Shown piece after piece: positions 1 to 14,787 of a stretch of 14,787 bases of DNA. The position numbers and the translations under genes were made by a program. Where the stretch lies: IMG/VR virus record IMGVR_UViG_3300027782_000022. One strand, written 5' to 3'. The DNA is from a virus. The notes beneath the pieces are model-generated. The model was not told the DNA's origin and searched no databases. It saw only the letters and a list, made by a program, of their open reading frames with translations. Numbering within the stretch: position 1 is the first letter of the stretch; each line of letters starts with the position of its first letter.

Positions 1-127
1 CCACAGTCCTCCGTTGCGGCCCTGTCTCCAACCGTGGCAGCACGAACCCTTCAGGATGTACCCGAGCCTTCTCGGTCACGCTTTGGCCTCTCCTGGAGCG
101 TTCTGGGACTTCTGGGGGATAATTGAG
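1..127. repeat. Terminal direct repeat, copy 1. Exact duplicate of 14661..14787, most likely the overlap of a circular assembly.
   Basis: Base-by-base comparison shows ccacagtcctccgttgcggc...tctgggggataattgag is identical at both window ends (127/127). The repeat cuts through a coding sequence (TerL 5' end), which fits an assembly overlap better than a physical terminal repeat. Confidence 0.95.
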
Positions 128-454
128 AGGGGCGGCGGGAGTGTCCGATGGCCTGTCTGAAAAACGGGTTGCAACTTTTTTTCCGTTCCGTTTCGCGGTG
201 GCTCGCGCTGATCCGAGTCGGCCGCCGTGTGATCGGTTGCAGCTGAGGTGGGCTATGCCTGCGGCGTCAAGGCTGGGGGCTATTTCGCCTGTTTCTGCCA
301 ATGGTGGTTCGTGGTCTGCGCTTGGGCCGTCTGGGTGTGATCCGGGCAAGGTCATGTCGACTGGGTAGCCGCAGCGGATACAGACGGCTTCGCATTTGGC
401 TAGGACTTGCTTGCGCCATGCTCGATAGGCCGCTGTGTTGTGGAGACTGCTCAT
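1..454 (-). CDS. HNH endonuclease domain ORF, partial in this window. It has no stop codon and continues in frame into the large terminase across the circular junction.
   Basis: The ATG at 454..452 overlaps the stop of the upstream 72-aa ORF (ATGA). Hand translation gives MSSLHNTAAYRAWRKQVLAKCEAVCIRCGYPVDMTLPGSHPDGPSADHEPPLAETGEIAPSLDAAGIAHLSCNRSHGGRLGSARATAKRNGKKVATRFSDRPSDTPAAPLNYPPEVPERSRRGQS, followed by the TerL start codon GTG. It carries a C-x2-C...DH...AH-x2-CN-x-S-x-G HNH signature. The frame is open to base 1, and bases 1..127 repeat the TerL 5' end. It is absent from the ORF track because it runs off the window edge. Confidence 0.8.
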   Translation of the reverse strand, partial: MSSLHNTAAYRAWRKQVLAKCEAVCIRCGYPVDMTLPGSHPDGPSADHEPPLAETGEIAPSLDAAGIAHLSCNRSHGGRLGSARATAKRNGKKVATRFSDRPSDTPAAPLNYPPEVPERSRRGQSVTEKARVHPEGFVLPRLETGPQRRTV

Positions 455-669
455 GCTCGGCGTCCGGCAAGAATCCTGTGGACTGCTTCGACGGGGTAGC
501 CCTTCTGTCGGGCTTGGCAGGCCATGAGCCAGCGCTCATGTGTTTCGGGTCGGCAGAACTGGCAGGGGCTGGTGTGGTCGGTGTCTATCCAGCCTCGGTA
601 ACAGATTACGTGGCCGCAGTTGCAGCCAGGCTTTCGACAGTGTGCGTCTATTTCGATGGGTGTGTGCAT
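451..669 (-). CDS. Cys-rich putative zinc-finger protein (72 aa) of unknown function. It is the first gene after the large non-coding region and is coupled to the HNH-TerL ORF.
   Basis: The ORF has 7 Cys (C-x4-C-x-C-x4-C...C-x2-C). An extended SD, aGGGGAAAcaaATG, lies upstream. Its stop overlaps the HNH start (ATGA). Confidence 0.7.
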   Translation of the reverse strand: MHTPIEIDAHCRKPGCNCGHVICYRGWIDTDHTSPCQFCRPETHERWLMACQARQKGYPVEAVHRILAGRRA

Positions 670-915
670 TTGTTTCCCCTAGCGTTTGCGGCCATTCGTC
701 CGGGCTTGTCCCTACGGGCCCAGCCGAACGGCCGTTGGTGGTTGAGTGAGTATCTTCCCCGATCATCCTCTAATCGTTTCCGATCTTGCATCTACTCCGC
801 GACCATGCACCCATTTCCGCATGGCAGGCCCACCAGCTTTAACCTGGGTTAGACCCGCCAATGACTCGGGCCATGGCATAGGGGGCGCTGCCATGCGGCG
901 ATGGTGCTGTGCGAG
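670..915. promoter_or_regulatory. Largest non-coding region of the genome (246 bp). Candidate promoter, operator, origin or packaging-site region.
   Basis: I found no convincing ORF in the sense direction. It lies between the last early-type gene and the packaging genes and contains clustered CATGGCA/CCATGC motifs and inverted repeats. No confident -35/-10 pair was identified. Confidence 0.45.
817..898. repeat. Inverted repeat: CCGCATGGCAG (817..827) and CTGCCATGCGG (888..898), 11/11 bp. A third CATGGCA copy lies at 872..878.
   Basis: Read directly from the sequence. The 889..895 arm (TGCCATG) can pair either with 872..878 (7 bp, 10-nt loop) or with 817..827 (11 bp, 60-nt loop). Flanking ccat/atgg (811..814 and 901..904) extends the long stem past a 2x2 internal loop. 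Confidence 0.75.
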
Positions 916-1044
916 TTAGTTAGATGCTTCGGGATGCTGTTCGAGGTAGGCCTGCCACACGTGGGCTTGGAGCCTGCCGCGCTGACCTACTGGAATGCCG
1001 ACCTTCCGAGCCCATGCCCGGACATCCTTTTCGGTTGCGATCAT
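916..1044 (-). CDS. Stand-alone Lsr2-like DNA-binding domain protein (42 aa).
   Basis: Hand translation gives MIATEKDVRAWARKVGIPVGQRGRLQAHVWQAYLEQHPEASN. This matches the Lsr2 C-terminal domain pattern (I/V)R-x-WAR-x2-G-x2-V-x2-RGR(I/L)-x3-V-x2-AY. The ATG overlaps the upstream stop (ATGA), and the SD aGGAGGGGAAAccgaATG lies upstream. The ORF is below the track length cutoff. Confidence 0.75.
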   Translation of the reverse strand: MIATEKDVRAWARKVGIPVGQRGRLQAHVWQAYLEQHPEASN

Positions 1045-1721
1045 TCGGTTTCCCCTCCTGTGAACGCTTCGACCGTGGTCGATTTAGCCATGTGCTCAAT
1101 GACGTCAGATGCTGCTCGCTTCGTCAGGTCGTCAAGGGTGGTGACGGTATCACGGTTCGCGGCCATGAGACAGGCATTGACAAGACCCATGAACTCTTCG
1201 CGTGTCGTAATGCCCATCTCTTTGGCCATGCCCCTGATCTTGCCTTTCTGAGCTGTGGAAGCATAGTTCTCCAGGCCTCCGTGCTCATTCCGTGTTGTGC
1301 GCGGGATAGGTTGTCCATTGGGGAAAGTCTCGACCACAGGTTGAGGCTTGTAAAACGGGTCGTCGGCTGGTGTACCAGTTAAACGCTCAGCCTTAGTCAT
1401 TTCCGTCATTGAGGCGCGGAACTTTTCTTTGGAGTATCCAGCATTTGCCAGGGCTCGACCGATGGCTGAGGTTTCGCAGTTTTCCAGGGCTGACGTCTTA
1501 TTGACTGGGGAGCCGCCGACTACCTCCTCGGCAAATCCGTTTGCAGCTAGTCGGTCGCCGATCCAGACTTGGGCCTCCATGACGTACTGGAGAGGTCGGC
1601 CTGTTTCGTCCCGAATAACCTCGATAAGCCTGGACTCGATGCGGCCATCGTCCTTGTGTTCGCCCCAAAACTTATGAATACGGGTGTCGACGGTTTCGTA
1701 TTGGCTGAGATCAAACGCCAT
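1041..1721 (-). CDS. Putative DNA-binding / recombination-replication protein (226 aa). The function is tentative.
   Basis: The ORF is long with good coding character. The N-terminal domain ends in NKTSALENCETSAIGRALANAGY, which resembles the terminal helix of Rad52/Sak-like phage annealing proteins as I remember them. The C-terminal region (AQKGKIRGMAKEMGI...LDDLTKRAASDVIEHM) resembles a helical tail common in phage replication and recombination proteins. No search was done. Confidence 0.55.
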   Translation of the reverse strand: MAFDLSQYETVDTRIHKFWGEHKDDGRIESRLIEVIRDETGRPLQYVMEAQVWIGDRLAANGFAEEVVGGSPVNKTSALENCETSAIGRALANAGYSKEKFRASMTEMTKAERLTGTPADDPFYKPQPVVETFPNGQPIPRTTRNEHGGLENYASTAQKGKIRGMAKEMGITTREEFMGLVNACLMAANRDTVTTLDDLTKRAASDVIEHMAKSTTVEAFTGGETE

Positions 1722-1851
1722 GATTTGCCGCCAATACTTCGACGCAGCGCCATGAACAGAAATGCATAGTCAGCCCGACGCGGGGCGTAAGCGTGATGAA
1801 AGCGCCGTCGTGCATAACAGTCCGGCAATCGTTGCATTGGTACAGGATCAT
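1711..1851 (-). CDS. FCS/TRASH-type zinc-ribbon mini-protein (46 aa).
   Basis: Hand translation gives MILYQCNDCRTVMHDGAFITLTPRVGLTMHFCSWRCVEVLAANHGV. The pattern is C-x2-C-x22-C-x3-C, with the hallmark FCS-x2-C. The ATG overlaps the upstream stop (ATGA), a GGGGAAAG SD lies upstream, and the 3' end overlaps the next gene by 11 nt. Confidence 0.65.
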   Translation of the reverse strand: MILYQCNDCRTVMHDGAFITLTPRVGLTMHFCSWRCVEVLAANHGV

Positions 1852-1976
1852 TTCTTTCCCCATTCTTCGCATATTTCCTTGTGGTGTTTTACTGCTTCAG
1901 CCAAAGCCGTTTTTACGGTTGGCCCCATGACGCGCCCACATGTGCAGGACGCCGAATACATGATGTAGGCGGTCAT
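1848..1976 (-). CDS. Hypothetical mini-protein (42 aa).
   Basis: Hand translation gives MTAYIMYSASCTCGRVMGPTVKTALAEAVKHHKEICEEWGKK. It has ATGA overlaps at both ends and fills what would otherwise be an empty gap in a tightly packed operon. I recognise no motif. Confidence 0.45.
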   Translation of the reverse strand: MTAYIMYSASCTCGRVMGPTVKTALAEAVKHHKEICEEWGKK

Positions 1977-2350
1977 GCCAGGATCTCCCATTCTCGGAGG
2001 ATGCGGCCATGATTGCCCTTGATTATCGATGTGGTAAACCCAGACGCTCGGATGAGGCCTTTAGAGGCCCAGGAGTGCATCAGGGCGCCGATCTGGTTGC
2101 TCGATCCGCAGGGTAGACCCACGTGCATCCTAAGGTCGTCGGCTGTGATTGTTTGCCCAGGCCCAAGGTTTCGCCTGTAATCGTTGGCGCGGTTGTGCCA
2201 TTCGGCATCCTTGACGACAGCGGCTGTGGCTGCGGCTTTGGCTGCATAACCGTCGCCAGCAGCACACCAGCTGCAAACGCCATTCCGGATAGGCCGACCA
2301 CAAGTAGTGCAGTCGTCAAGCGTTGTGGCGAATAAGGTTCCATCGTGCAT
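1973..2350 (-). CDS. Zn-ribbon plus putative winged-helix DNA-binding protein (125 aa). Possible regulator or replication initiator.
   Basis: I place the start at the internal ATG (MHDGTLFATTLDDCTTCGRPIRNGVCSWCAAGDG...) preceded by cGAAGGGGAAAcgATG. This is the same leader as the HTH gene. The 221-aa track ORF extends upstream over two other genes, so I reject that extension. CxxC...CxxC lies at the N-terminus, and the C-terminal NQIGALMHSWASKGLIRASGFTTS...NHGRILREWE looks wHTH-like. Confidence 0.7.
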   Translation of the reverse strand: MHDGTLFATTLDDCTTCGRPIRNGVCSWCAAGDGYAAKAAATAAVVKDAEWHNRANDYRRNLGPGQTITADDLRMHVGLPCGSSNQIGALMHSWASKGLIRASGFTTSIIKGNHGRILREWEILA

Positions 2351-2379
2351 CGTTTCCCCTTCGTGTGTGTTTGTGTTTG

Positions 2380-2484
2380 TTAAAGGCCTGGAGCCTCGAG
2401 CCAGCCGATTAGGCCCATGAAGGCCAGCCCGACTGCTGTGGCGCCAATGTAGAACAGGACTCTGACAAAATACTGAAGCGACAT
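2380..2484 (-). CDS. Single-pass membrane mini-peptide (34 aa).
   Basis: Hand translation gives MSLQYFVRVLFYIGATAVGLAFMGLIGWLEAPGL. The start lies 5 nt after the stop of the transglycosylase-like gene, in the context GGAAAGTAGGGGAAATG. One clear hydrophobic helix is present. Confidence 0.5.
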   Translation of the reverse strand: MSLQYFVRVLFYIGATAVGLAFMGLIGWLEAPGL

Positions 2485-2489
2485 TTCCC

Positions 2490-2876
2490 CTACTTTCCTG
2501 GTGTGCAGGTCCAGCGACCGCCGGCCCAATGCTTTGAGCCCGACCACTTTCCCCTGTAATTAAGCGTTTCGACCATGGCCGCGATCTGAAGATTCCGAGG
2601 CCATTTGTGCATTTCTGTTGCCCTAAGGCGTGCGGCAAATTCCCTAGGCTTTGGGTGCCAGGTCTTCAGCCAGTCAAGCATCATCCATGTGGCCCCATCG
2701 GTCAGGGCGTCATTGAATTGGAACATTCCAAAGTACCCGTTTGTCCGGTTCGTGCTTTTCGGGTTGCTGTGTGATTCCCGCTCGGCCACACAATGCACAT
2801 AGGCAGCCTGATCGGGAGGGATCACGTAGGTCGGGCCTGCGAGGAGGGCCGCAGCTGTCACGGCCGCGACGATCAA
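2490..2876 (-). CDS. Transglycosylase/lysozyme-like protein with an Ala-rich N-terminal hydrophobic segment (128 aa). The start codon is uncertain.
   Basis: VAERESHSNPKSTNRTNGYFGMFQF resembles the E-S...G-(L/M)-(F/M)-Q catalytic region of SLT/Rpf-type transglycosylases. The N-terminus is MIVAAVTAAALLAGP. The track start is TTG, overlapping the HTH stop (TTGA). A GTG five codons downstream is an alternative start. Confidence 0.65.
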   Translation of the reverse strand: MIVAAVTAAALLAGPTYVIPPDQAAYVHCVAERESHSNPKSTNRTNGYFGMFQFNDALTDGATWMMLDWLKTWHPKPREFAARLRATEMHKWPRNLQIAAMVETLNYRGKWSGSKHWAGGRWTCTPGK

Positions 2877-3070
2877 ACCGCCTCGATGATCGTAACGGTA
2901 GGCGATACGCGAGTACGCGTGATTGCTTCCACGCTGTCGCGGTTTACTCGCCTCTGGCCGCCGGGCGTCCTGTGTCCCTCGATGATGCCGAGGTCGAGGT
3001 AGCGCCCGACCGTGTCAGTTGAGACGCCAAGGATCTTGGCAGCCTCTCCAGGTGTAATGATTTCGCTCAT
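2873..3070 (-). CDS. Excisionase/MerR-type helix-turn-helix DNA-binding protein (65 aa).
   Basis: ITPGEAAKILGVSTDTVGRYLDLGIIEGHRTPGGQRRVNRDSVE matches the HTH_17 / excisionase-family pattern. The leader cGAAAGGGGAAAcgATG follows a 49-bp non-coding gap. Confidence 0.85.
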   Translation of the reverse strand: MSEIITPGEAAKILGVSTDTVGRYLDLGIIEGHRTPGGQRRVNRDSVEAITRTRVSPTVTIIEAV

Positions 3071-3119
3071 CGTTTCCCCTTTCGAGGTAGAACGTAGCAG
3101 GCTTTACGCGATTTGCGCG

Positions 3120-3557
3120 CTATTTCTTGGGCGTGTTCAGGATCGGCAGCGGGAACGTCTGGGCGTTGTTTTCGCCCTTGGTTGTGAATGACACGTGAAT
3201 ATGGTGCATATGACCGTAGCCTGAGCCGCGCCATTTCCACATCGAGTTGGCGTATGTCCCTGAAGCAATTTGGTCATTGAAGACCACGTACTTGATGCGG
3301 TTAGCGCCTGGAATTCCTGAGGCCGCATAGGCCACGATCTGGTTAGCGAGCCGTTGTGCTGCGCCTGGATCTTTGGGGTCTAGGTCGGCGTCGATATCGA
3401 GGGCGTGGACCAGGCCTCGAGCGTCGGGGTTGTGGTCTGAATGCCTTCCGGCGTGTGCCTTGTCGCCGATCCAGCCGTCTGAACGCTTGTCGCGCTTGGG
3501 CCAGCGCTTATTGACCTGATTGCGGAGGGTTACGCCTCCGGCTACTAGGCGGGCCAT
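3120..3557 (-). CDS. Endolysin: single-domain zinc peptidase of the DD-peptidase/LAS (M15-like) fold (145 aa).
   Basis: His/Asp metal-ligand signature GDKAHAGRHSDHNPDARGLVHALDID...GHMHHIHVSF. It sits directly after holin-like genes (TAATG overlap at 3557). No cell-wall-binding domain is evident. Confidence 0.8.
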   Translation of the reverse strand: MARLVAGGVTLRNQVNKRWPKRDKRSDGWIGDKAHAGRHSDHNPDARGLVHALDIDADLDPKDPGAAQRLANQIVAYAASGIPGANRIKYVVFNDQIASGTYANSMWKWRGSGYGHMHHIHVSFTTKGENNAQTFPLPILNTPKK

Positions 3558-10577: not shown

Positions 10578-12098
10578 TTAGTCTTCGAGGCTGATGATGC
10601 CAGCGCCGGAGATGATCTGCGAGGCGCCGTAGCCATAGACCGCAACGTCGCGGCCCAACTGTGCGACGTTCTCGACGGTGGCGAGACGGGGGCCGTCTTC
10701 GATCCACTTGGCTGCCTCGCGGTTGGAGACGATTGCAGCATTGCCGCCCAGGTTGCGGTCGAGGATGACCGGGAGACCTGAGACGCTAACGGCGAGAGTG
10801 TTTGCGCTTGCCGTACCCGACACGTTGTAGGTGCCGTAGTTGGACGGGAAGAACGTGCTCCAGCCGCCGATCTTGATGAACACTGCCGGGGAGACCAGGA
10901 CGAATTCGGCCGGCATTCCGGTCGCGGTCTGGCACTCGACGGATGCTGCGAACACTGCCTCGCGGAAGGCCGAGCCATCCGTGTCGGCTGTGATGTCGTA
11001 GGTGAGCGGGGTGCGCGCACCGTAGACGGCTGCGATGAACGCGATGTCCGTAACCTGAACGTACGAGTTCAGCATGATGCGGGTGTGTGCATCGACGTAG
11101 GACGGGGTGGAGCGCTGAAGCAGCTGGTAGGAGATGTCCGAGCCAGCGGCGTAGGTCTTCAGCGTTGCGGTGCCCTTGAGAAGGTCGATGCGAACCGAGT
11201 TAACCTCGTCCTTTTCGTCGATTTGCTCGGCCACAATCTCGGTCAAATCGCCTGACCAGTAAGGCCAGTTAAAGACGGTGCCCGAGGTGCCAGCTGACTC
11301 CGTGCCGAATGCGGTGATGGTCGGGCGACCTAGGTCGAAGATGCCGCGAACGATGCTCGACCAGTTCGGGGGCAGGACGCCTGGGTTATTGTCTGTGATC
11401 TGATCGACCAGGGCGCGTGCCTCGATCTCGCCGTTCAGAACTGCAAGGCGGTACTCGCCAAAGCTGCGGTACTGGGCGAGTTCGTGCACCTGGGGGGCTG
11501 CGGCGTATGAGCGTGCCTCGATCTGAGCAACCTGCTCACGAACGGTGGCAATGGCCTCACGTGCCTGGATGTCGGCGGTGACCGCAGGAGCGGTTTCCAC
11601 CTCTACGGTTTCGACTGACATTTCTTCCTCTCGGATTGCTGTTACACCGGCCGTGGGATATGCCGGCATATGGGTTATTGACGTCTCCATGAGAGAGGCC
11701 GCCATGTGCTGGACCGCAGTCTTTGCCCGGTTCCAGACAGATTTGGTCGGCATGAAACCGACAGAAAGGCCCTTTGCGGAGCCTGTGCGGATGAGGGTCG
11801 CGGCGTCGCGGCCCTGCACTGTGTTGGCGATATTAAAGTCGATGTAAAGCCCGTCTGGCTTATTCTCAGCTGCGGTAATAACGCCGATGGGCTCATTGTG
11901 GCGGTAGGCGATGGGCTTGCCGATAACGTCCTCGGGCTGGAAAGCGTTAGCGCCGAAAGATTCACGCACATTGCCGATGTTTGTTTCGACTCCGTAGGGG
12001 ACGGCGCGACCGTAGCCCTGTCCGGCGATGTCGGGGTTTGCGCTGTCCTCGCGCATTTCGACAATGAAATCGGCTGAAAACTCTGTGGTCTGCATCAT
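10578..12098 (-). CDS. Fusion polyprotein: HK97-family prohead serine protease (S78) - short acidic/coiled linker - HK97-fold major capsid protein (506 aa).
   Basis: N-terminal protease motifs are IAYRHNEPIG, GLSVGF and METSITHMPAYP. The linker is REEEMSVETVEVETAPAVTADIQAREAIATVREQVAQIEARS. The C-terminal ~300 aa is typical of HK97-like capsid proteins (...LPPNWSSIVRGIFDLGRPTITAFGTE...). ATGA coupling to the portal gene. Confidence 0.9.
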   Translation of the reverse strand: MMQTTEFSADFIVEMREDSANPDIAGQGYGRAVPYGVETNIGNVRESFGANAFQPEDVIGKPIAYRHNEPIGVITAAENKPDGLYIDFNIANTVQGRDAATLIRTGSAKGLSVGFMPTKSVWNRAKTAVQHMAASLMETSITHMPAYPTAGVTAIREEEMSVETVEVETAPAVTADIQAREAIATVREQVAQIEARSYAAAPQVHELAQYRSFGEYRLAVLNGEIEARALVDQITDNNPGVLPPNWSSIVRGIFDLGRPTITAFGTESAGTSGTVFNWPYWSGDLTEIVAEQIDEKDEVNSVRIDLLKGTATLKTYAAGSDISYQLLQRSTPSYVDAHTRIMLNSYVQVTDIAFIAAVYGARTPLTYDITADTDGSAFREAVFAASVECQTATGMPAEFVLVSPAVFIKIGGWSTFFPSNYGTYNVSGTASANTLAVSVSGLPVILDRNLGGNAAIVSNREAAKWIEDGPRLATVENVAQLGRDVAVYGYGASQIISGAGIISLED

Positions 12099-13320: not shown

Positions 13321-14739
13321 TTATGCGCGTCGGCGTGTATGGATTCGAGCCATGGGCCTCGGGGTCTTGCTTGCCTGGTAGGCCGCGAACATGACGGCCC
13401 GTGCTGCGTACACGCCTCCATGGCCCATCCGGGCAGACATGACCCATCCGCCTTGGCGCTTGGAGATATTCGATTGCGTGAAATGCTCCAATAGCGTTTC
13501 CGAATCTTCGTGGACTATTGCCCGACGGTCGAACAGATCTAGGAGGTTCTGGGTTGCAGCTGCGGCTTCGCGCTGCCCGACGAGTTCGTCGAAACGCTCT
13601 TGAAGCCTGTCTACATAGCCTGGGGTGACCTGTATAAATAGGCTGGGGTGATCCTTGCGGATTTCCCCTAAGCGTGCGTCGACATCCTTAATCGTTCGGT
13701 GAGTAGTGGCCCGGACAACGATGCGCCCATCCTCCAGCGGTGCGGCGATTGCTACAGCGTGGCCCATTCCGTCAAAGTCGGACTCGACCGCCACAGACCA
13801 GATCCCCTCGGGGGGCAACCCTTCGTCGGAGAGGGTTTCTTTCCACCAGGAATCTTTCAGCCAATGGTTTGCCCGGGGAACCCACATATTCAGGTATTCG
13901 CGCAGCCATGAGGATTGCTCGATGTTTTCCCATTGGCCTCGGAGGAAGGCCTCGCGCTTATCGTTCCATTCTGGGCTAGCGTACTTCCAGGTTTCCGGAT
14001 CGTCAGGATCTGCGGTCGGTGGCGCTGACCATTCCAGGAGCAGAATATTTCCAGGATCATCGGCCCCGAGGTGGTCGATTGCCCTTTGCCGATATGAGGC
14101 CATGAGATCGCTCGATGAGTCACCAGCCGTGGAAACTAGGAAGGCCTGCGGGTTGAGTCGCTCGGCCATGGTCGGCGCGATAGCGCCCATGAACACCTGG
14201 CTAGGGATGCTCCAGGCTTCATCGAGGAAAGCCATGTTTATGGAGAATCCGACGCCAGCGGAATCGTTTGCTGCATGAATTAGCCATCGGTCGCCGGACG
14301 GTAGTTCGATGCCTGCCCGTTCGTTACCCCATCGGGCTGCTTGCTTGCCGTACTTTTCCACGGCCCAAATGCCAGCCGGACGCATAACCTCCATGGCGGT
14401 TGAGCGCTTATTGGCCACATGGAGAATCGTCTGCGGCTCCCCGAACAGTTCGGCATGGTGAAGCCGCCACATGCAGATTGCCCGAGACAGGACCGACTTG
14501 CCGGACTGCCGAGCGACTGTAAGCACGACCGTCGGCCAGCACAGTTCCCCAGTTTCGGGGTAATACTCCAGCGCCCGGTCGAGCGCGTAAGCCTGCCAGC
14601 CTCTCAGCTGCAATCCGTACACGGTAGACAGCCAAACCCGAGCCGCGGGGCCATGCGTTTCCACAGTCCTCCGTTGCGGCCCTGTCTCCAACCGTGGCAG
14701 CACGAACCCTTCAGGATGTACCCGAGCCTTCTCGGTCAC
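13321..14739 (-). CDS. Terminase large subunit (472 aa from the GTG). The reading frame stays open upstream to the window edge and joins the HNH ORF on the circle.
   Basis: Walker A-like VARQSGKS, Walker B MAFLDEAW, and a C-terminal RNaseH-like nuclease region (VAVESDFDGMGHAVAIA). The GTG at 14739 has AGGAGAGG 7 nt upstream. Confidence 0.92.
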   Translation of the reverse strand: MTEKARVHPEGFVLPRLETGPQRRTVETHGPAARVWLSTVYGLQLRGWQAYALDRALEYYPETGELCWPTVVLTVARQSGKSVLSRAICMWRLHHAELFGEPQTILHVANKRSTAMEVMRPAGIWAVEKYGKQAARWGNERAGIELPSGDRWLIHAANDSAGVGFSINMAFLDEAWSIPSQVFMGAIAPTMAERLNPQAFLVSTAGDSSSDLMASYRQRAIDHLGADDPGNILLLEWSAPPTADPDDPETWKYASPEWNDKREAFLRGQWENIEQSSWLREYLNMWVPRANHWLKDSWWKETLSDEGLPPEGIWSVAVESDFDGMGHAVAIAAPLEDGRIVVRATTHRTIKDVDARLGEIRKDHPSLFIQVTPGYVDRLQERFDELVGQREAAAATQNLLDLFDRRAIVHEDSETLLEHFTQSNISKRQGGWVMSARMGHGGVYAARAVMFAAYQASKTPRPMARIHTRRRA

Positions 14740-14787
14740 GCTTTGGCCTCTCCTGGAGCGTTCTGGGACTTCTGGGGGATAATTGAG
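14661..14787. repeat. Terminal direct repeat, copy 2. Exact duplicate of 1..127.
   Basis: Same 127-nt string as 1..127. The unique genome length is therefore 14,660 bp. Confidence 0.95.

Follow-up and report, generated by a model that had tools for sequence, protein, structure and literature searches.

The locus at positions 916..1044 raises two questions: whether a reading frame of only 42 amino acids, resembling the DNA-binding half of Lsr2, is a complete gene, and what such a lone domain would do for a phage. Lsr2 silences foreign DNA in actinobacteria and is needed by mycobacteriophages for productive infection, and it also controls antibiotic gene clusters of Streptomyces and virulence genes of Mycobacterium tuberculosis (PMC10066036).

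The window, that is, the whole stretch of 14,787 nucleotides analysed, has the appearance of an entire phage genome (~14.8 kb) in circularly permuted form, and its genes all share one strand. Both of its ends (1..456 and 13321..14787, minus strand) cut inside the HNH-terminase region, in keeping with a complete genome that is circularly permuted. The recognisable genes encode the terminase large subunit, the portal, a protease-capsid fusion, tail proteins and a MerR/HTH_17 protein. The scans for tRNAs and Rfam families gave no matches in the window, and megablast against cultured phages detected no nucleotide-level relative. One 506-aa ORF (10578..12098, minus strand) codes for the prohead protease (Peptidase_S78) together with the major capsid protein (Phage_capsid_4), and this single-ORF arrangement is also found in distant relatives (506–508 aa). 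Small Cys-rich, zinc-ribbon-like proteins are encoded in the non-structural block (451..669, 1711..1872 and 1973..2350, minus strand), and a 72-aa Cys-rich protein (CxxxxCxC...CxxC) is conserved immediately upstream of the HNH-terminase region. In the relative L014 (4159..6066), an HNH-endonuclease-like N-terminal region (CxxC...HxxxxxN...H) and the large terminase share one 635-aa frame.

An actinobacterial host, as proposed in the earlier note, received indirect support from three sides. The best relatives of the portal protein were the portals of small Arthrobacter, Gordonia, Rhodococcus and Curtobacterium phages (~31% identity); the tblastn matches of the mini-domain were all actinophages, except for one record of unnamed host; and a capsid fragment 84% identical to that of the window was found in a Ca. 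Nanopelagicales MAG. The two MAG contigs that match the phage are probably binned phage DNA. Relatives of the phage occur in many metagenomes, and the record names suggest that some of these are from freshwater lakes. Scans of the window proteins detected no integrase in the window lineage. In the distant cousins L033 (5079..5873) and L034 (7261..8025), a reverse-oriented tyrosine integrase separates the tail genes from the HTH gene, so the 15-kb group has temperate members alongside apparently lytic ones.

The mini-gene was identified on the minus strand at 916..1044 (stop codon included), with its ATG at 1044..1042 and its TAA at 918..916, based on the ORF list, Pfam, a PDB profile search, AlphaFold2 and Foldseek analysis, and pN/pS. 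Its 42 codons are translated as MIATEKDVRAWARKVGIPVGQRGRLQAHVWQAYLEQHPEASN, and the peptide quoted in the earlier note corresponds to residues 7–36 of this product. The public gene calls include the mini-gene under the label 'hypothetical protein'. The mini-protein belongs to the Pfam family PF23359 (Lsr2_DNA-bd), which it matched over profile positions 7–34 of 37 with an E-value of 1.1e-9 and 37.9 bits, above the curated gathering cut-off of 26.9 bits; the same family is also precomputed for its relatives. Two Lsr2-like families of PHROGs matched as well (E-values of 2.6e-8 and 2.2e-7), while the NCBIfam search with the mini-protein gave no match. Compared with PDB, the profile of the mini-protein family detected 2KNG, 6QKP and 6QKQ, all of the C-terminal domain of M. 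tuberculosis Lsr2, with E-values from 3e-6 to 9e-6, the match to 2KNG (3e-6) showing ~50% identity over 28 residues.

The AlphaFold2 model of the mini-protein, built on 25 family members, had a pLDDT of 88.5 and consisted of a helix (residues 5–15), a loop of 11 residues (16–26) that includes R22-G23-R24, and a second helix (27–36). Foldseek analysis of this model against PDB returned three NMR structures of the Lsr2 DNA-binding domain as the top matches (36–38% identity), the best of which was 6QKP (TM 0.70, rmsd 1.9 Å, 34 columns); the E-values were weak, as expected for only 42 residues. The identification of an Lsr2 DNA-binding domain at this position, made beforehand from the letters alone, was thus borne out by Pfam, PHROGs, the 2KNG profile match and Foldseek, including the HMM check that had been proposed for it. 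The mini-protein starts four residues ahead of helix 1, and residue 2 is paired with residue 41 in the model. As judged from this model, the conserved termini of the mini-protein may pair with each other and close the mini-fold, rather than dock a partner.

Lsr2 carries, besides this domain, an N-terminal oligomerisation domain. We therefore looked for this domain, first within the mini-gene and then elsewhere in the window. No Pfam match to the Lsr2 oligomerisation family was detected among the ~22 predicted window proteins scanned, a set without the portion of the HNH-TerL frame extending past the ends of the window, and a separately encoded oligomerisation domain was accordingly rejected for these proteins. 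The mini-protein is not an Lsr2-like silencer, since the oligomerisation domain was tested for and is absent. Having a single DNA-binding site and lacking an oligomerisation module, the mini-protein is predicted neither to bridge DNA nor to form filaments. The domain is also not extended upstream, and the description of it as stand-alone holds. Taken together, we regard it as almost certain that this gene encodes a lone Lsr2-type DNA-binding domain as its whole product.

The completeness of the gene was examined in its relatives. A Shine–Dalgarno sequence, AGGAGG (1054..1059, minus strand), was read 9 nt 5' of the ATG, and a purine-rich GGAGG-like site is present at the same distance in most relatives, even where the upstream gene differs. 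In a large protein collection, the mini-gene family fell into 31 clusters (90% identity), with lengths of 42–46 aa in nearly every case, and the exact mini-protein sequence of the window was found on 24 contigs. We fetched 32 related loci, of which 30 extend beyond the upstream gene, and the mini-gene was 42–43 aa in length in all 30. Among 22 distinct coding sequences, pN/pS was 0.23, with 40 of the 42 third positions variable; the frame was free of stops in all 22 variants, and stops occurred in all other five frames, excluding a chance ORF in GC-rich DNA by frame-specific selection. Protein-level conservation extends to both termini (MIAT... and ...HPEASN), and in the C-terminal tail (...YLEQHPEASN) it holds even though synonymous divergence is highest there (pS 0.64).

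The earlier note had named an in-frame extension in relatives as the sign of a fragment of a full-length gene. In the window, the in-frame stretch 5' of the mini-gene is 13 codons long and falls within the preceding gene, which is read in a different frame, while in relatives it ranges from 3 to 73 codons and shows no conservation. This, with the length of 42–43 aa across related loci, excluded the remnant of a longer Lsr2 gene. In some relatives, a further gene is inserted between the upstream gene and the mini-gene, namely, a 49-aa gene at L004 (9855..10004) and a gene for a 77-aa CxxC protein at L012 (3681..3914). The mini-gene remains unchanged at 42 aa after either, and each inserted gene overlaps the start codon of the mini-gene, indicating that translational coupling is kept whichever gene is upstream. 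No slippery heptamer of the X XXY YYZ type was found in the final 13 codons of the upstream gene; together with the Shine–Dalgarno sequence of its own and the 49-aa and 77-aa insertions, this excluded a −1 frameshift tail on the upstream protein.

The gene upstream of the mini-gene (1041..1721, minus strand) encodes a protein of 226 aa, and its TGA overlaps the ATG of the mini-gene (ATGA). This protein matched phrog_11717 with an E-value of 4e-31, its relatives carry the precomputed family PF27148 (Slr1353_N), and a phage homologue is annotated as 'mgM101-like protein'; no sequence-level match was found in Pfam-A or NCBIfam, and no significant one in PDB. In the AlphaFold2 model, residues 11–100, forming the N-terminal domain, had a pLDDT of >90, and Foldseek returned yeast Mgm101 at the top (probability 1.00, rmsd 3.1 Å, TM 0.31–0.42, with an E-value of only 5e-3), followed by many RAD52 chains, including human RAD52. 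On these grounds, the neighbour is probably a single-strand annealing protein of the Rad52/Mgm101-like type, with an N-terminal domain that may adopt the Rad52-type fold (beta-beta-beta-alpha). This domain contains the invariant NKTSALENCETSAIGRALANAGY, and the helical C-terminal domain is lineage-specific. The family of this neighbour comprises at least 8000 proteins (PF27148 Slr1353_N), without functional annotation in the libraries used.

The loop of the mini-protein carries the AT-hook-like motif R22-G23-R24, encoded by 973..981 (minus strand), which was located by HMM alignment to 2KNG and by its position in the modelled loop; it aligned with the RGR of M. tuberculosis Lsr2. R22 and G23 are conserved in ~90% of the mini-protein family and R24 is variable, being replaced by T, H, P or K in approximately one-third of the family clusters. 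The loop with this DNA-contact motif is the most variable segment in the family, and five members (P0054, P0055, P0058, P0196 and P0222) lack R-G-R, having, for example, GITQGVHEDML or CECGKV in its place, while retaining W11, A12, Y33, L34 and the HPEA tail. In one of these, P0196 (95 aa), the mini-domain is duplicated in tandem, and both motifs are degenerate. CgpS functions with an RGI motif (PMC5137423), and annotated full-length phage Lsr2 copies have NGR and RGV at this position. Given RGI in CgpS, relatives that have lost the second Arg may still bind DNA. We consider it likely, judging from the sequence, that the window mini-protein has retained DNA binding, and conservation of the motif is what suggests its preference for AT-rich DNA.

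How might a phage use such a protein? By analogy with the isolated C-terminal domain of Lsr2, the mini-protein would bind as a monomer to the minor groove of AT-rich DNA and, being presumably unable to bridge DNA or to build filaments, would act solely by site occupancy. Co-produced with the probable annealing protein through ATGA translational coupling, it could coat or mark AT-rich stretches of replicating or recombining DNA, where nucleation of host Lsr2 filaments would be prevented. Host Lsr2 is the natural competitor for the same sites, which makes competitive counter-silencing the leading reading. As the best explanation overall, we tentatively propose a gene for a lone DNA-binding domain that acts by occupancy of AT-rich DNA and competitive counter-silencing, with somewhat less than an even chance of being correct in full. 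That antagonism of host Lsr2 is the function for which the mini-protein was selected is possible, albeit doubtful. Counter-silencing as such, the role suggested in the earlier note, is plausible from the sequence. The accompanying term 'dominant-negative' was, however, wrong: poisoning of this kind requires an oligomerisation domain, and a protein with the DNA-binding domain only is unable to poison Lsr2 oligomers and could only compete for sites. A monovalent Lsr2-type domain is expected to bind far more weakly than a cooperative filament, as formed by Lsr2 or H-NS, so that effective competition with Lsr2 would need a high copy number of the mini-protein. Silencing by the Lsr2-like protein CgpS requires oligomerisation (PMC5137423), and truncated phage copies of Lsr2 have already been suspected of interfering with Lsr2 (PMC10066036). 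A role of the mini-protein as a prophage silencer is unlikely because the window lineage lacks an integrase.

The counter-silencing reading is tempered by several observations, namely, the variable R24, the loss of the motif in a few family members, the lack of an AT-rich island, and the lack of the mini-gene in the annealing-protein-bearing cousins L033 and L036/L037. It is also tempered by the fact that the truncated antagonists documented or proposed so far consist of the other half, the oligomerisation domain (PMC5137423, PMC10066036). Moreover, the gene context points to a role in DNA recombination or replication at least as strongly as to counter-silencing. The main rival is such an accessory role, in which the mini-protein would be a DNA-targeting subunit that binds the annealing protein, or another replication protein, and tethers it to AT-rich DNA; a fusion of the Ku-Lsr2 DBD kind would here be divided into two polypeptides. 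In support of this, the mini-gene is coupled through ATGA to the gene for the probable Rad52/Mgm101-like protein, and in a distant temperate cousin (46% identity between the annealing proteins), a 54-aa stand-alone Lsr2 DNA-binding-domain gene (Pfam E-value of 1.4e-12) abuts the annealing gene on the upstream side, opposite to the order in the window. Ku is fused to an Lsr2 DNA-binding domain in cluster J mycobacteriophages (PMC8612146). The conservation of the termini MIAT... and ...HPEASN at the protein level could likewise reflect a partner, but the model pairs residues 2 and 41, and the termini may just close the mini-fold.

Other stand-alone domains bear on the same point. We identified four other stand-alone Lsr2-domain genes, of 41–54 aa, in other phages, three of them beside DNA-metabolism genes; a 46-aa domain adjoins an AAA_25 helicase and DNA polymerase A (PolA) in a phage of ~45 kb. 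In a sample from IMG/VR, which was drawn with degenerate DNA patterns and is therefore biased, 54 reading frames carried the DNA-binding domain, and the longest possible ORF was 51 aa or shorter in three of them, one of which belongs to the window's own family. Of the others, a 41-aa ORF immediately precedes a gene for an HNH endonuclease and one of 47–51 aa is two genes away from SSB, and a fourth short frame spans 58 codons from stop to stop, without a start codon upstream of the domain. Among 1.84 billion representatives searched, 5140 proteins carried the Lsr2 DNA-binding domain. This search ranks multi-repeat proteins first, so the top of its list consisted mostly of proteins with 2–6 tandem domains, and it gives no length distribution for single-domain proteins. 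Many of the proteins detected carry the domain as a C-terminal module, which speaks for the accessory role. Many others (among P0180–P0325) consist of 2–6 tandem Lsr2 DNA-binding domains without a recognisable oligomerisation domain, the extremes being two-repeat mini-proteins of 68–82 aa and six repeats in 541 aa; such proteins could bridge DNA by multivalency alone. The Lsr2 DNA-binding domain thus occurs in many architectures, indicating a mobile module, and its stand-alone form with a single copy recurs as a minority.

Against the accessory role, however, no fusion of PF27148 and PF23359 was found among the best 120 homologues of the annealing protein, the 49-aa and 77-aa genes intervene between the two genes in some relatives, and the cousins at L033 and L036/L037 carry the annealing protein without the mini-gene or any Lsr2 domain. 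In addition, adjacency is weak evidence in a 15-kb phage, where almost any non-structural gene adjoins another. We consider a role as accessory subunit unlikely on balance, while it deserves serious consideration. It is also rather unlikely, though worth stating, that the stand-alone domains of 41–54 aa constitute a recurrent, undescribed class of phage counter-silencers that would defeat Lsr2-type xenogeneic silencing by competing for AT-rich sites while the phage DNA replicates or recombines.

Alternatively, the mini-protein might regulate or shape the phage's own DNA, at an AT-rich promoter, origin or packaging site, without involvement of host Lsr2. Purifying selection fits such a housekeeping role, and the phage has few recognisable regulators, with one MerR/HTH_17 protein. 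The position of the mini-gene is also in agreement, as it is the last gene of the non-structural block, before a non-coding stretch of 245 nt with conserved hairpins and the HNH-terminase region. In this stretch, a consensus fold of 13 relatives revealed two adjacent stem-loops 20 nt past the mini-gene stop (853..895, minus strand), with 15 pairs, three of which show compensatory double changes; the folding energy was no better than that of shuffled sequences (z = 0.39). These stem-loops may conceivably mark the end of a transcription unit (an operon-end terminator without a U-tail) or represent another signal. However, the targets that this reading calls for were not detected. The genome has a GC content of 58%, the lowest 100-nt window still has 42% GC, and the genome scan showed neither an AT-rich island nor an AT-rich tract of >9 nt, so that a dedicated AT-rich target island on the phage was rejected; nor were promoter-like sites found in positions 1–3200 of the window. 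The low sequence specificity of a monomeric AT-hook-like domain also counts against this reading, and we consider the reading improbable.

Still less probable is that the Lsr2 fold has been repurposed, with the core and the tail binding a protein and the RGR motif a relic, so that no action on DNA is involved. The five family members without R-G-R, which keep the core and the HPEA tail, and the high variability of the loop would be explained in this way, but R22-G23 is present in the window copy and in ~90% of the family, and changes at the third position are tolerated in proteins of the same kind (RGI in CgpS (PMC5137423); NGR and RGV in the full-length phage copies). Finally, that the mini-gene is not independent at all, but a chance ORF, an Lsr2 remnant or the −1 frameshift tail of the annealing protein, has a negligible probability, because the very short length of the ORF and its −1 frame relative to the upstream gene, the stop codon of which it overlaps, are outweighed by frame-specific purifying selection without stops in 22 variants, a start codon and a purine-rich SD-like site that most relatives keep, the same 42 aa after a different upstream gene with an unconserved in-frame upstream stretch, and the lack of a slippery heptamer at the end of the upstream gene.

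The mini-protein is a candidate for asking whether site occupancy alone counters Lsr2 silencing. If proteins of 42 aa do displace Lsr2, they would represent a new type of phage anti-host factor and a very small natural tool to switch on silenced clusters. If the mini-protein instead serves the recombination module, it would show the use of the Lsr2 domain by phages as a free-standing DNA-binding part. Either way, a peptide of 42 residues can be synthesised and is a cheap, directly testable reagent.

Compared with known systems, the mini-protein shares with the DNA-binding domain of M. tuberculosis Lsr2 the same fold of helix, RGR loop and helix. In Lsr2, this domain is the C-terminal half of a protein of ~112 aa with an N-terminal oligomerisation domain, whereas the mini-protein consists of the DNA-binding domain alone; its family further differs from Lsr2 in a W at position 30 and in the conserved tail ...YLExHPEASN, which is predicted to pair with the N-terminus. 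Full-length Lsr2-like proteins of phages and prophages, such as CgpS of the C. glutamicum prophage CGP3 and those of Streptomyces, Mycobacterium and Gordonia phages, are likewise encoded by actinophages and have a homologous DNA-binding domain, which in the Streptomyces phage Coruscant is up to 59% identical to the mini-protein. Three full-length phage examples of the 'Lsr2-like DNA bridging protein' were 110–185 aa in length, with an Lsr2-like N-terminal region in two of the three. CgpS silences its prophage by oligomerising (PMC5137423), and the mini-protein, unlike CgpS, is unable to oligomerise through an N-terminal domain.

Two architectures are closer in lacking the oligomerisation domain. 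The Ku-Lsr2 DBD protein of cluster J (PMC8612146) has, like the mini-protein, a DNA-binding domain without an oligomerisation domain in a repair or recombination context, but its domain is joined covalently to Ku, while the mini-protein is a separate product encoded beside a probable Rad52-like annealing protein. The metagenomic tandem proteins (2–6 repeats, 68–541 aa) also have no detectable oligomerisation domain, and the repeats in them are close relatives that share the ending ...AYL.AHP; these proteins are multivalent and could bridge DNA, whereas the mini-protein has a single copy of the domain.

Phage-borne full-length copies of Lsr2 and oligomerisation-only truncations are already known, and we found no description of phage Lsr2 proteins with the DNA-binding domain only in the literature searched. 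Truncated phage Lsr2 proteins of <80 aa (clusters BD, BK, EE and EH), the engineered CgpS N-terminal domain as well as H-NST of E. coli have been proposed or shown to be silencer antagonists (PMC10066036, PMC5137423, PMC8612146), and these, like the mini-protein, are halves of silencer proteins on mobile elements. They keep the oligomerisation domain without the DNA-binding domain and poison oligomers, while the mini-protein has the reverse architecture and would act at the level of DNA only. The mini-protein is thus the reciprocal of the known oligomerisation-only truncations and, if the proposed class of stand-alone DNA-binding domains is real, this class would be the DNA-level mirror image of oligomerisation-domain decoys such as H-NST and the N-terminal-only phage Lsr2 proteins.
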